Origin: Eledone cirrhosa
Taxonomy: Eukaryota
Direction of reading: 5' to 3'
Length of the DNA stretch: 64,000 bases
NCBI GenBank assembly: GCA_964016885.1
Contig: OZ024747.1
Location: 23,932,001-23,996,000, forward strand
A program made the position numbers and the translations under genes. This document shows positions 37,471-63,430 of this stretch, piece by piece. The notes beneath the pieces were generated by a model. That model did no database searches, was not told the DNA's origin, and was given only the letters and a program-made list of their open reading frames with translations. Positions within the stretch are counted from its first letter, which is position 1; every line of letters starts with the position of its first letter.

Positions 37471-37649
37471 ATCTGTTTTATTGGGGAAAGTATTAAGAAT
37501 CAATGTCAACAAGAAAAGGGATGGGAAAGAGTATGCCATTCCACGGGGTAACCCATTTATCAATGAAACAGACGCTCGTCCAGAGATTTTTGCATATGGA
37601 ATCCGAAATATTTGGCGCTGTGATAAAGATGAAGGGGACCGCATCACAG
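37471..37649 (+). CDS. HHIP-like (HHIPL-type) protein, internal exon A (GSDH beta-propeller)
   Basis: TTTCAG| acceptor and |GTCAGT donor. Encodes SVLLGKVLRINVN..YAIPRGNPFINETDARPEIFAYGIRNIWRCDKDEGDRIT, matching the HHIPL motif LLGKVLRIDV..YxIPxDNPF..PEIYAYGxRNxWRC. Confidence 0.93.
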
Positions 37650-38605
37650 GTCAGTTACTTACTGTATAACTATTTAATTTATATTTGATATACACACACA
37701 TAAAACTATATATCTCTACTTGTTATACACTGATTCACATACTCTCACACACATCATACACGTGAATATTTATATATCATCATCATTGTCGTTATTGTTT
37801 AATGTTTATTTCTCTGCTAGCTAGTGTTGGATGGGTCTTCATAGACCAAGTCAGTACTCAAGTTGAGCTACTGAACTCTCAGATGGCCCAGGAGTCTGCA
37901 TCTCACTTACATATATTCTGGCACTCTGCTGAGTGCCCTGACATTAGGAATCAAATATAAATATATATTCTTTACTATCGAACCCTTTTCCTGTTTGCAA
38001 ATCCAAATGTTCACCAAAATAGATGACTGAATACACGTGTTTTTCTCCTTCCTCTTCTCAATATCTATCTTTCTATTTCATCTTTTATTTCTCATTCTAT
38101 CTTCTGATGAAGGACTAGTGTCTGAAACATTAAGACTCTATTTCTACTATATCAAGCATTAAACTAATATATTTCTTCATTGAACTGCATCATTTGCTTA
38201 TATATATATATATATATATATATATATGTTTATGTGTGTGTATATGTGCATATTTATATGTGTTAGTATCTCTGTATACATGAATACCAGGGGTGGATAA
38301 AGCTTGTATGGGGCCCCTGGCTTAAGATTTAATTGGTAGGGGCTAGTGTATTATTTATGATAGCAAAAACTATAATTTGGGGCTCTATAGATATTGTTAG
38401 GTTGGTCTCTGGCGACAGCCCAGTCAGCATCTCCTCTTAATCCATTATTTGTGCATGTATATATGTATGTAATTGAATATATGTATCAGTGGTGTGTGTA
38501 TGTGTATGTGCCTAAGTATGCATGTGTGTGTGTGTGTATGTGTGTTAAACAACAGTATATATTTTGTTATAATACATACAGCATTAATGTTGTTTATCTT
38601 TTGAG

Positions 38606-38749
38606 GAGAGAACAAAGGGCGAATAATCTGTGGAGATGTTGGCCAGAATGCCTTCGAAGAGATCGATTTATTGGTAAAAGGTGCCAATTATGGCTGGAAT
38701 GGCAGAGAAGGTTACCAATGCTTTCATCCAGCAGTGTGTGGCATGGTTG
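38606..38749 (+). CDS. HHIP-like protein, exon B
   Basis: TTTTGAG| acceptor and |GTAAGT donor. [45 protein letters not shown]. Phase is compatible with exons A and C. Confidence 0.92.
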
Positions 38750-58800: not shown

Positions 58801-61800
58801 TTCTAAAGATCATCTTGGCTCCAGCTCGGTTTCTAAAGATCGTTTTGACTCCACCTCGATTTCCAAAGATAATCTTCACTTAGTATCATCCTCTGATCAT
58901 TACCCTCACCACAGCTCGGTATCTCACATTGGCTTGCATTCCATCTATGCAAATTACAATAACACCAGAATAGTTTCACACACATCTTCACATTCTACAA
59001 AATCTCAAACAATATATAAATTCTTGTCTGTTACAACACCAGGTCCTACTCCTACTAGTACACATTATTCAGTTGGTACAACTCATTCAACATCTACTTT
59101 GAGATTTGGGGGTCATGTTGGATCTAGCTCTGTTTCTGAGGATAATCCGCAATCAAACTCTCTGTCTGAGGATGATCTGGAGTCAAGCTCTGATAGTGAG
59201 AATGATCTGGAATCAAGCTCTGACACAGAGGATGACCTAGAGTCTAGCTCTGGGTCTGGAGATAAGCTAAAGTCAGAATTTACTACTAAAGATTCATCTT
59301 CTTTTAATAGATTCTCAAAATCTCATGTTAGGTCATCAGGACATTATTCCCATTCCACTTCTACCTCTAAAATAAATTCTGTTACTAGTTCCACATATGG
59401 AGATGTTCTTCTCTCCAGTTCTATGTCTGCGAAATACCATATGACCAGAAGAGTTCAAAGCTCAACTTCTTCACATCCTACAAAATCTCCTATAATATTT
59501 AAATTCCTGTCTGTTACAAGCCAACAACCAACCTCTCTTATAAACAGTGACATCAGAACATTCTCAACTAAACTCCACCCTCGTTCCATTCATACCTCTC
59601 CTATAACATCCTATCCTACTGCAGTGTACACTAGACACCTCGTTACCTCTTCTGGCGTAACACCACACTTTTCTTTAAATCCTGTAGATTCTTTAAAATC
59701 AGGTGGAACACTTAACATTGATGATTATCCGACATTTACTACTAAATATATTACAACATCTTCACGTTCCCAATATTATACTGACTTTCATTCTACATCT
59801 GGAGATGATCTGGACTCTGATTCAGTCTCTGGTGATGATCTAGACTCCAGTTCTACATCTGGAGAAGATCCAGACTCTAATTATGGCTCTGGATATTACC
59901 CAGTCACTCGTACCCCTTCCAGTGTTTCTGTAGGTATCTCTTCCACAAGAGGGAATAAATCAAGCTCTAATCCAATATCTGTTCATTTTATTAGATCTAC
60001 CAAAAGTAATCAAATTACTTCAGTGCCTATAGTTCATAATGGCTCCAGCACAGTTTCTAGAAAACACCTTGATTCTAGCTCAATTTCTAAAGATCGTCTT
60101 CGCTCCAGCTCAGTTTCTAAAGATCGTTTTGACTCCAGCTCAGTTTCTAAAGATCGTTTTGACTCCACCTCAATTTCCAAAGATAATCTTCACTTAGTAT
60201 CATCCTCTGATCATTACCCTCACCACAGCTCGGTATCTCACATTGGCTTGCATTCCATCTATGCAAATTACGATAACACCAGAATAGTTTCACACACATC
60301 TTCACATTCTACAAAATCTCAAACAATATATAAATTCTTGTCTGTTACAACACCAGGTCCTCCTCCTACTAGTACACATTATTCAGTTGGTACATCTCAT
60401 TCAACATCTACTTTGAGATTTGGGGGTCATGTTGGATCTAGCTCTGTTTCTGAGGATAATCCGGAATCAAACTCTCTGTCTGAGGATAATCTGGAGTCAA
60501 GCTCTGATAGTGAGAATGATCTGGAATCAAGCTCTGACACAGAGGATGGCCTAGAGTCTAGCTCTGGGTCTGGAGATAAGCTAAAGTCAGAATTTACTAC
60601 TAAAGATTCATCTTTTAATAGATTCTCAAAATCTCATGTTAGGTCATCAGGAGATTATTCCCATTCGACTTCTACCTCTAAAATAAATTCTGTTACTAGT
60701 TCCACATATGGAGATGTTCTTCTCTCCAGTTCTATGTCTGCGAAATATCATATGACCAGAAGAGTTCAAAGCTCAACTTCTTCACATCCTACAAAATCTC
60801 CTATAATATTTAAATTCCTGTCTGTTACAAGCCAACAACCAACCTCTCTTATAAACAGTGACATCAGAACATTCTCAACTAAACTCCACCCTCGTTCCAT
60901 TCATACCTCTCCTATAACATCCCATCCTACTCCAGTGTACACTAGACACCTCGTTACCCCTTCTGGCGTAACACCACACTTTTCTTTAAATCCTGTAGAT
61001 TCTTTAAAATCAGGTGGAACACTTAACATTGATGATTATCCGACATTTACTACTAAATATATTACAACATCTTCTTCACGTTCCCAATATTATACTGACT
61101 TTCATTCTACATCTGGAGATGATCTGGACTCTGATTCAGTCTCAGGTGATGATCTAGACTCCAGTTCTACATCTGGAGAAGATCCAGACTCTAATTATGG
61201 CTCTGGATATTACCCAGTCACTCGTACCCCTTCCAGTGTTTCTGTAGGAATCTCTTCAACAAAAGTCGTTAAATCAAGCTCTAATCCAATATCTGTTCAT
61301 GTTATTAGATCTACCAAAAGTAATCAAATTACTTCAGTGCCTATAGTTCATAATGGCTCAAGCACATTTTCTAGAAAACACCTTGATTCTAGCTCAATTT
61401 CTAAAGATCGTCTTCGCTCCAGCTCAGTTTCTAAAGATCGTTTTGACTCCAGCTCAGTTTCTAAAGATCGTTTTGACTCCACCTCGATTTCCAAAGACAA
61501 TCTTCACTTAGTATCATCCTCTGATCATTACCCTCACCACAGCTCGGTATCTCAGATTGGCTTGCATTCCATCTATGAAAATTACGATAACACCAGAATA
61601 GTTTCACACACATCTTCACATTCTACAAAATCTCAAACAATATATAAATTCTTGTCTGTTACAACACCAGGTCCTACTCCTACTAGTACACATTATTCAG
61701 TTGGTACAACTCATTCAACATCTACTTTGAGATTTAGGGGTCATGTTGGATCTAGCTCTGTTTCTGAGGATAATCCGCAATCAAACTCTCTGTCTGAGGA

Positions 61801-63430
61801 TGATCTGGAGTCAAGCTCTGATAGTGAGAATGATCTGGAATCAAGCTCTGACACAGAGGATGACCTACAGTCTAGTTCTGGGTTTGGAGATAAGCTGAAG
61901 TCAGAATTTACTACTCAAGATTCATCTTTTAAAAGATTCTTAAAATCTCATGTTAGATCATCAGGAGATTATTCCCATTCTACCTTTAAAATAAATTCTG
62001 TTACTAGTTCCACATATGGAGATGTTCTTCTTTCCATTTCTATGTCTAGGAATTACCATATGACCAGAAGAGTTCAAAGCTCAACTCCTTCATATTCTAA
62101 GAAATCTCCTACAATATTTAAATTCCTGTCTGTTACAAAGCAACAGCCAACCTCTATAATGAACAGTGATATCACCACAACTTTCTCACTTAAACTCCAC
62201 TCTGGTTCCATTCATACCTCTCCCATAGTATCACGTCCTACCCCAGTGTACACTAGACATCCCATTGCCTCTTCTAGTGTAACACTACATTCGTTTTTAA
62301 ACCCTGTAGATTCTTTTAAATCAAGTGAAACACTCAATATTGATGATCATCTTACATTTATGACCAAACATCCTACACCATCTCCTTCAATTTCCAAACT
62401 TTATACTGACTATGGTTCTGCATCTGGAGATGATATCGATTCCAGTTCTACCTCTGGTGATGATCTGGACTCTACTTCTGGAGCTGGACATGATCTGGAC
62501 TCTAATTCTGGATATGGTGATGATGTGGACTCTGGTTCTACTCCCGGAAAAGATTCAGTTTCCAACTATGGCTCTGGACATTTCCCAAGCTCTAATATCC
62601 TCTCTGGTGTTTATGCAGTTTTATCTTCATCAAGGATAGTTAAACCAGTCTCTAATTCAATTTCTGATCATTCTATTAAATCTACCCAAATTAATTCCAA
62701 CTCCTCCATGGTTGCTTCTTCAACTACTTTAGACTCAATTTCTCTATATCATATTGATAATAACTCTATTTCTGGCAATAGAAATAGTTCTAGTTCTTCC
62801 TTAATCCATAATCCACTCCAGAAGCTTAGCTCCAGAAAATCTTCACATACAAATTCAGAATCTAGTTTGACTCTTGTTGATGATGTGGACTACAGTTCTG
62901 GCTCAAGTGATCATCTCTCCTCAAACTCTGCCTCAGGTGATGACCTTGACCCCAACTCTGCTTCTGGTGATGATCTTGATACCAGCTCGGCCTCAGGTGA
63001 TCATCTTGACACCAACTCTGGCTCTGGTGTCAGTTCAGAAAGTTATAGATCAGGCAATGACCAGAAAATTTCAAGTTCTACCTTGCTTCATAAAAAAGAG
63101 GATTCAAAACCTGATAAAAAGTGTAGATGTCAATCAAAACTCCTATGTGCCATCAGTTCAAACTACAAACATGAAAAGTCAGTAAGCAATGACATTTACA
63201 TCCAGAGTTACCCTCACACAAGATCTAAACGACAGACAAGGCAAATAAAGAGAAAAAAGAAAAGCTGGAAAAGCTTATTCTTAAATACTCGACCATACAC
63301 AAGGCACCATTCTCATGAGAAGTTACATGTGCATTTTCAACCATCTGCTTTGAGAAAACAATCACCTGATGATAGTAATAAAGATCACATCATTCAAGAT
63401 TTGGTTCCTAGTGACATGTATGATTACTAA
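43801..63430 (+). CDS. HHIP-like protein, giant terminal exon: ~6,540-aa Ser/Thr/Asp/His-rich tandem-repeat (mucin/proteoglycan-like) tail
   Basis: Polypyrimidine tract + TTGCAG| acceptor at 43800. The phase-2 join with exon E gives DPFR-RGNPELC (compare HHIPL DPSRRAPPGKC). In frame with the stop-free ORF 43757-63430. Confidence 0.85.
47051..61759 (+). repeat. Coding tandem array: 11 units of 1314-1377 bp (mostly 1344/1347), plus a diverged partial 12th unit to ~62700
   Basis: Landmark CATAATGGCTC has its ATG at 47961, 49308, 50685, 52032, 53379, 54723, 56067, 57381, 58725, 60039 and 61353. Confidence 0.97.

Follow-up and report, generated by a model that had tools for sequence, protein, structure and literature searches.

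The 64,000-nucleotide stretch of Eledone cirrhosa DNA analysed here (the window; contig OZ024747.1 of assembly GCA_964016885.1) contains five exons of the octopod HHIPL1 gene that run in frame into a sixth, 19.6-kb exon encoding a serine-rich repeat tail of 6,542 residues. The reading that we favour, with a probability of roughly 55%, is that this gene is splice-switched and yields a matrix-resident form of HHIPL1 that bears glycosaminoglycan (GAG) chains and O-glycans, fills space and tethers its own head. The switch would operate at a 5′ splice site that lies 71 nt inside the last exon: use of this site would give a short (about 600 residues) secreted protein consisting of a cysteine-rich domain (CRD) and a propeller, and read-through would give a form of about 7,100 residues with a disordered tail, heavily O-glycosylated and bearing GAG chains on dozens of Ser-Gly-acidic sites. 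A polybasic C-terminal segment could then fasten this form to sulphated matrix or to the surfaces of cells. It would thus work as a matrix proteoglycan or mucin with a ligand-binding head on a spacer, filling and hydrating the matrix, and its tail would keep the HHIPL head from diffusing, along with any bound ligand, for which Hedgehog or its sterol is the strongest candidate.

Exon structure and the long open frame

Homology and splice signals together lead us to infer the following gene structure.

37471..37649, + strand: exon A, third coding exon of HHIPL1, GSDH propeller (179 nt, AG/GT ends; Pfam GSDH E 3.3e-7; 81% identical to Octopus vulgaris residues 348–407)
38606..38749, + strand: exon B, propeller (144 nt, AG/GT ends; GSDH E 0.0035, below cut-off; 89% to O. 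vulgaris)
40231..40360, + strand: exon C, propeller (130 nt, AG/GT ends; 91% to O. vulgaris)
41356..41498, + strand: exon D, propeller (143 nt, AG/GT ends; 80% to O. vulgaris)
42419..42500, + strand: exon E, last propeller blade (82 nt, AG/GT ends; 75% to O. vulgaris)
43801..63430, + strand: exon F, long form (coding length 19,630 nt; tail of 6,542 residues, 706 kDa before any modification; stop TAA; both ends homologous to Argonauta hians GAB1602952.1)
63715..63795, + strand: two A[AT]TAAA hexamers, at 63715 and 63790, candidate polyadenylation signals (sequence pattern)

An earlier, sequence-only reading of this DNA had proposed five in-phase AG/GT exons joining the 19.6-kb open reading frame (ORF) at 43801. 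Its exon ends, frame and junction peptide (DPFR/RGNPELC at the E–F boundary) are all reproduced here; exon B has the length given there, and AG/GT boundaries fit it solely at 38606–38749. The Pfam search that it suggested recovers the GSDH domain in exon A, with exon B scoring below the cut-off. The splice phases of exons A–F (2, 1, 1, 2, 1, 2) are mutually consistent, and exons A–E plus the sequence from 43801 onward form a single frame of 6,768 codons whose sole stop lies at 63428–63430. The frame from 43739 to 63427 holds 6,563 open codons, and the five remaining frames carry 260–803 stops. Even with the repeat array counted once, 2,066 open codons remain; across 300 second-order Markov simulations, the longest ORF averaged 105 codons and never exceeded 197. 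A coding exon of 19.6 kb falls in the size range of the largest known, those of MUC16, AHNAK and TTN. DNA-type contigs from three runs match 43535–45502 with 0–1 differences (one sample, possibly the source of the assembly itself); they cross the E–F intron unspliced over the 42260–46750 compared, which marks them as DNA.

Architecture of the tail

Beyond its conserved start, the tail falls into three parts.

44213..47626, + strand: degenerate modules, comprising acidic 10-residue (30-nt) Ser/Asp repeats, Ser/Thr/Pro spacers and a YKFLSVT-type motif
47627..62329, + strand: array of 11 homogenised units of 437–459 residues each, with units 6–7 and 8–9 a near-identical pair duplication
62330..63427, + strand: unique C-terminal part that contains SGDD repeats and a polybasic stretch (about 63221–63262) and closes with the conserved D-M-Y-D-Y, without a hydrophobic anchor (three-species alignment, 134 invariant columns)

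Measured anchor to anchor, the 11 array units span 1,311–1,377 nt, are 94–100% identical and differ in length only by indels of 3, 6 or 30 nt. Neutrality predicts about 2–4 stops in these units and none is seen, a difference that is weak alone. Units 7 and 9 are 100% identical, and units 6 and 8 99.9%. The pair 6–7/8–9 (54392–59707) is a near-perfect 2,658-nt duplication that could reflect either a recent unequal crossover or an assembly duplication. The unique C-terminal part is single copy in the genome. The tail is 26% Ser and 10% Thr (36% together; 41% with Pro), 8% Asp and 5% His, and has six Cys. Its hydropathy maximum is 1.03, and a GPI or transmembrane anchor was considered and rejected, as there is no hydrophobic segment. 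Pfam returned nothing above cut-off on the parts of the tail scanned, where no SRCR, EGF, VWD/CysD/CK or SEA domain was seen. The YKFLSVT-type motif resembles the last strand of the propeller (IYKL/VYKF), possibly by chance.

An HHIPL1 head divided by a probable scaffolding inversion

The 5′ half of the gene lies outside the window and was absent from the earlier account. A genome search placed O. vulgaris HHIPL1 residues 2–347 at C7:25049964–25049008 and 25034243–25034158 on the minus strand and residues 347–597 inside the window, 1.06 Mb away. The two halves are complementary without overlap, the phases of all seven introns fit, and the rejoined frame comprises 7,116 codons with one stop. 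Displaced exon 1 encodes a hydrophobic leader, judged by inspection to be a signal peptide, and a Folate_rec match (E 2.6e-12), and also matches GSDH; the leader bears out the earlier suggestion of a secreted protein.

Over its first 598 residues, the rejoined protein is identical to O. vulgaris HHIPL1 at 510 positions (85%) and to Argonauta at 470, and the best matches of exon A are likewise Octopus HHIPL1 proteins (81%). The head has a six-bladed GSDH propeller with HNGG, GDGG, GIRN and SFGED motifs. For a predicted model of the O. vulgaris orthologue, the closest solved structures are those of HHIP, both by sequence (E 2e-63) and by fold (Foldseek ranks 1–15), followed by pyrroloquinoline quinone (PQQ) dehydrogenases. 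In a tree of 19 propeller halves the window sequence sits inside an octopod clade with 100/100 support; the tree contains no HHIP or HHIPL2 row, and the HHIPL1 versus HHIPL2 assignment is by annotation only. As far as sequence comparison can tell, the head is the single octopod HHIPL1 orthologue. The propeller was thus correctly recognised as HHIPL-type from the first. A second, divergent HHIPL paralogue lies at C3:138928862–138954500 (32–55% identical to O. vulgaris HHIPL1); about 20 kb of sequence beyond the last exon that could be recognised in it showed no ORF for a long tail.

The separation of the two halves coincides with gaps in the scaffold.

19768..19967, unstranded: 200-N scaffold gap, one end of a seemingly flipped 1.01-Mb segment (other gap C7:24961101–24961300)

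The suspect segment, C7:23951968–24961100 (window 19968 onward), lies between these two 200-N gaps and splits HHIPL1; the distal gap sits 73 kb past exon 2. Flipping the segment in silico restores gene order and puts side by side two (AT)n arrays of like strand bias (A.50/C.077/T.42 versus A.515/C.079/T.406), each of which now faces unrelated sequence. Direct comparison of the contig ends at the two gaps found no overlap. Since two gaps bracket the segment and the flip restores the gene, a scaffolding error is likely, and an intact gene divided by such an inversion appears the best explanation. That the inversion is instead real and the gene broken in this animal, or that the array owes its length to the assembly, would account for 5′ exons lying 1.06 Mb away on the opposite strand and for the (near-)identity of units 7/9 and 6/8, but we hold it to be highly improbable: both halves are intact, both breakpoints fall at 200-N gaps with (AT)n arrays, repeat-type contigs occur at 7–12x single-copy depth (a rough figure), and the Argonauta array was built independently.

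An internal donor and two predicted isoforms

Exon F contains a second, internal end.

43801..43871, + strand: exon F, short form, which stops at the internal donor CCG/GTGAGT (matches the divergence point of RefSeq Octopus isoforms; O. sinensis X1/X2, O. vulgaris ends)
43872..44212, + strand: conserved tail start with an acidic Tyr motif and a Cys pair, translated by read-through only (27/33 residues identical to Argonauta after the donor; 55% over the first 137 residues)

The first Met after the donor is residue 161 (79 in Argonauta), and no acceptor-like site was found in 43872–44400. The 33 residues past the donor, lying ahead of any Met and without such a site, can therefore be reached only by read-through, and because 27 of them match Argonauta, this region is under coding constraint. 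These observations bear on the view that only the short isoform matters, with the tail either belonging to an adjacent gene of its own or being a near-neutral expansion that is seldom read. The perfect internal donor, Octopus models that end there or divide the locus, and weak constraint among the repeat units all speak for it. However, the read-through residues are as conserved as the propeller (82% versus 79%), a stand-alone tail would lack a signal peptide, and the frame is open in two genomes over 14–20 kb, which makes this view distinctly improbable.

Since the RefSeq models of Octopus stop at the internal donor, the gene probably has both a short and a long isoform. The link between propeller and tail first noticed in this DNA therefore stands as an in-frame link, which is present independently in the Argonauta model and is accompanied by coding conservation through the donor, with the amendment that the long form is probably one of at least two isoforms. 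A pattern search of 63431–64000 and 60 kb further found no GILQM-like or VI-stop-like exon with which the short isoform might end; an acceptor-like site at 63513 would yield a 21-residue end unlike the Octopus ends. The O. bimaculoides model XP_052827341.1 uses the acceptor equivalent to 43801, lacks exon E and has exon F in the wrong frame, which probably reflects an annotation or assembly error.

The tail is conserved at its ends and turns over between them

The head–tail fusion already exists in one automated model, Argonauta hians GAB1602952.1 (‘hypothetical’, 5,238 aa), which comprises a full HHIPL1 followed by a tail of 4,665 residues. Beyond the conserved start, the two tails agree at 194 of 540 columns at the C-terminus and have identical last residues. 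The 3′ part of the tail also corresponds to O. bimaculoides XP_052827340.1 (‘clumping factor A-like’) and to a longer, 1,159-residue version of it; the former accession adjoins that of the HHIPL1 model XP_052827341.1, and the contigs of these two models are equal in length. The three species have in common acidic DLESS decapeptides, SGDD decapeptides and the YKFLSVT-type motif (25, 13 and 5 copies), and higher-order repeat units are lineage-specific in length and order. From these alignments, the ends of the tail are fixed and the sequence between them evolves by concerted turnover. All three species retain the polybasic end; a furin site (RSKR) near the C-terminus was rejected as a conserved feature, being absent from the two others.

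Searches for relatives of the tail outside octopods recovered only the O. bimaculoides protein (one of 7,999 scored candidates of 30–3,597 aa; one among 1.84 billion representatives), an absence that is weak given that proteins of 3,598–11,450 aa and the squid and cuttlefish genomes fell outside the search. With the junction region, one of 1,149 candidates matched, a short-stalk HHIPL, and the ESM Atlas held no usable match for either tail end. In 14 non-octopod rows (those in which the closing-motif pattern matched; many are isoforms, and several fetched proteins were missed by the pattern), HHIPLs extend 41–435 residues past the propeller closing motif, mostly as Ser/Thr/Pro stalks that end hydrophobic or, in oyster isoforms, polybasic (oyster shows both). 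Lungfish HHIPL1 has a Thr/Pro linker of about 260 residues before its SRCR domain, and Owenia has MAM and PAN domains. The arrangement of head, stalk and basic end is, on this sampling, a family theme, here enlarged 50–100 fold and found only in octopods. The claim that no family member has such a stalk thus has to be given up in the face of the Argonauta model and of the short Ser/Thr/Pro stalks usual in lophotrochozoan HHIPLs. The sequence-only reading had also allowed that such tails might prove common in invertebrate HHIPLs; this holds for short stalks, and the giant tail was found only in octopods. Our literature search (subscription journals and bioRxiv supplements outside its scope) found no paper on an octopod or cephalopod HHIPL, and no cephalopod proteoglycan core protein was evident from titles and abstract starts among the matches listed.

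Tail motifs favour glycosylation over phosphorylation

Motif counts in non-redundant tail sequence were compared with 20-residue local shuffles in the window, Argonauta and O. bimaculoides, in that order throughout. The dipeptide SG is enriched in all three tails (52 observed versus 26.6 shuffled, 29 versus 13.1, 49 versus 28.2), and its reverse, GS, is not (31 versus 26.8, 14 versus 12.9, 30 versus 28.5). SG[DE][DE] is enriched 6–10 fold (8 versus 0.8, 6 versus 0.6, 9 versus 1.5), and 65 of 141 SG sites have at least three acidic residues nearby. S-x-E, the Fam20C phosphorylation consensus, is depleted in the window and Argonauta (7 versus 23.0, 23 versus 43.5) and neutral in O. bimaculoides (16 versus 19.6). 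N-x-S/T sequons (43802–63427 in the window) are strongly depleted in all three tails. SG near acidic clusters is the usual context for xylosylation (PMC8418075).

Because Ser-Gly-acidic motifs are enriched and S-x-E and N-glycan sequons are not, a secreted proteoglycan bearing GAG chains and O-glycans is favoured over a phosphoprotein. The description of the tail as proteoglycan- or mucin-like, with Ser/Thr-rich repeats in one exon, is upheld by these counts, and its description as phosphorylated runs against the depletion of S-x-E in two of three tails. The acidic Tyr motifs suggest that Tyr at both conserved ends may be sulphated.

A different chemistry is conceivable for a long form that is made: the tail could be a GAG-free, O-glycosylated or phosphorylated Ser/Asp/His polymer that binds calcium or metals in a structural or mineral matrix (statolith, beak, sucker cuticle or egg coat), with the head as a passenger or cross-linker. 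The 32 DLESS blocks and 203 S-x-x-[DE] sites of the tail, its 26% Ser and 5% His, the expansion of DLESS in Argonauta (52, the most of the three) and the modest enrichment of S-x-x-[DE] in Argonauta and O. bimaculoides (z 4.5 and 2.5; global shuffles) are consistent with it. However, S-x-E is depleted or neutral, the directional SG enrichment would be left unexplained, and HHIP goes unmentioned in the main text of an argonaut eggcase proteome preprint. We regard this polymer as unlikely, though credible.

What the head may bind

In HHIP, a blade-3 loop binds the zinc of Hedgehog and the CRD binds cholesterol (PMC8660895), and basic clusters keep the protein on heparan sulphate (PMC4460154). 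SHH co-precipitates with human HHIPL1, whose effect on Hedgehog signalling is to enhance it, not to inhibit it (PMC6686954). With the acidic HHIP loop not conserved in the octopus head, the HHIP-type morphogen sink suggested earlier is not supported. Lungfish HHIPL1 likewise has a non-acidic loop of the octopus type.

Another view of the head is that it does not bind Hedgehog and is a retained GSDH-type enzyme, or a sugar- or quinone-binding propeller, anchored by the tail in mucus or matrix. O. vulgaris HHIPL1 is 38–43% identical to bacterial GSDH-family proteins versus 32–34% to HHIP, and four residues (His314, Arg392, Asn393 and Gly419), which we take to correspond to catalytic or PQQ-site positions of soluble glucose dehydrogenase, are invariant in 17/17 HHIPLs. 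The two C-terminal PQQ-binding arginines of the enzyme are presumably absent, with SFGED in their place; bacterial GSDH-family proteins also have the SFGED motif. The HHIP acidic loop is absent, and annelid HHIP-like genes could not be linked to the Hedgehog pathway (PMC9695228). Against this, HHIP tops both sequence and fold matches, ahead of PQQ dehydrogenases, and a CRD of the sterol-pocket type is present; an enzyme-like head thus seems improbable.

Weighing the favoured reading

Several observations count against a splice-switched, glycan-bearing matrix form of HHIPL1. The RefSeq/GenBank models of O. vulgaris and O. sinensis stop 1–4 residues past the internal donor, the O. bimaculoides annotation divides head and tail into separate genes, and both the Argonauta fusion and the O. 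bimaculoides tail are uncommented automated models. The rejoining of the gene draws on 340 kb read around the gene-bearing sides of the gaps, and the remaining 724 kb between them may hold further breaks. Among array units, the ratio of non-synonymous to synonymous differences (pN/pS) is 0.62–0.68, indicating weak constraint. The acids of the HHIP blade-3 loop, among them Asp383, align gaplessly to Gly, Asn, Gln and Val. As for the tail, simple GAG cores are acidic, whereas its net charge is close to neutral and 5% of its residues are His; none of the three tails contains the strict nematode motif [DE][GA]SG, and [DE]xSG is depleted in them; internal repeats inflate the shuffle z-scores; and motifs alone are poor predictors of GAG sites (PMC8418075).

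A bolder version of the favoured reading casts HHIPL1 as an octopod proteoglycan on the scale of aggrecan, in which the splice switch would turn a diffusible Hedgehog/sterol binder into a matrix-anchored form with about 60 GAG chains that builds cartilage-like or gelatinous matrix, sets Hedgehog range and serves as a major octopod chondroitin sulphate (CS) core. We consider this version speculative and rather doubtful.

The octopod HHIPL1 gene model is corrected: RefSeq truncates or splits it, and the present assembly appears to invert half of it. The long form offers a concrete candidate for a large cephalopod proteoglycan core protein, in a field where invertebrate core proteins are poorly known (PMC8418075), and the gene is a case in which, in a single lineage, a conserved signalling-protein head has gained a repeat polymer that turns over fast between fixed ends.

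Other features of the window

33957..35839, + strand: decayed Helitron-like fragment in intron 2, containing a PIF1 helicase (Pfam E 1e-50)
1740..4511, 14866..16008 and 30505..32999, − strand: LINE reverse transcriptase fragments, the last with a PHD finger inside the reverse transcriptase match
6262..14406, 17823..19767 and 23164..25113: (AT)n arrays several kilobases long, interrupted by C or T with a strand bias, and giving spurious long ORFs

Several of the (AT)n arrays in the window start directly after (GAT)n tails.

Comparison with known systems

Like other members of the HHIPL1/HHIPL2 family, the octopus protein has a signal peptide, a CRD, a six-bladed propeller, an RGNP..C closing motif and, as in many of them, a Ser/Thr/Pro stalk. 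Unlike them, it has a tail of 6,542 residues (versus 41–435) with a homogenised array and SG-acidic motifs, and has neither an SRCR domain nor a hydrophobic anchor. The C-terminal SRCR domain of vertebrate HHIPL1, detected in a lungfish control, is absent from the tail parts scanned. With vertebrate HHIP it has in common the CRD, the propeller fold and basic segments that could bind GAG. It differs in having no EGF repeats (six Cys in the tail) and a Gly/Asn/Gln loop in place of the acidic blade-3 loop (PMC8660895), and whereas HHIP binds GAG, the octopus protein probably carries it. Argonauta hians GAB1602952.1 and O. bimaculoides XP_052827340.1/A0A0L8HVX8 have the orthologous tail, with the same modules and the YKF/YRF motif.

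Aggrecan and versican, MUC16 and MUC5B combine a globular binding head with repeats in one giant exon, tandem-repeat turnover and isoforms with and without the glycan region. The octopus protein likewise has a putative binding head, a giant repeat exon and SG or Ser/Thr repeats. The likeness is one of analogy only, since there is no sequence homology and Pfam found no Link, C-type lectin, VWD, CysD or SEA domain in the two tail parts scanned. Drosophila Windpipe, a CS proteoglycan that restrains Hedgehog via its chains (PMC8418075), sets a precedent in that a CS carrier of an invertebrate acts on Hedgehog, although it is small, bears three chains and has an unrelated core protein. Taken together, these comparisons suggest that the octopus protein is a member of the HHIPL family that would behave as a large proteoglycan or mucin without belonging to those families.

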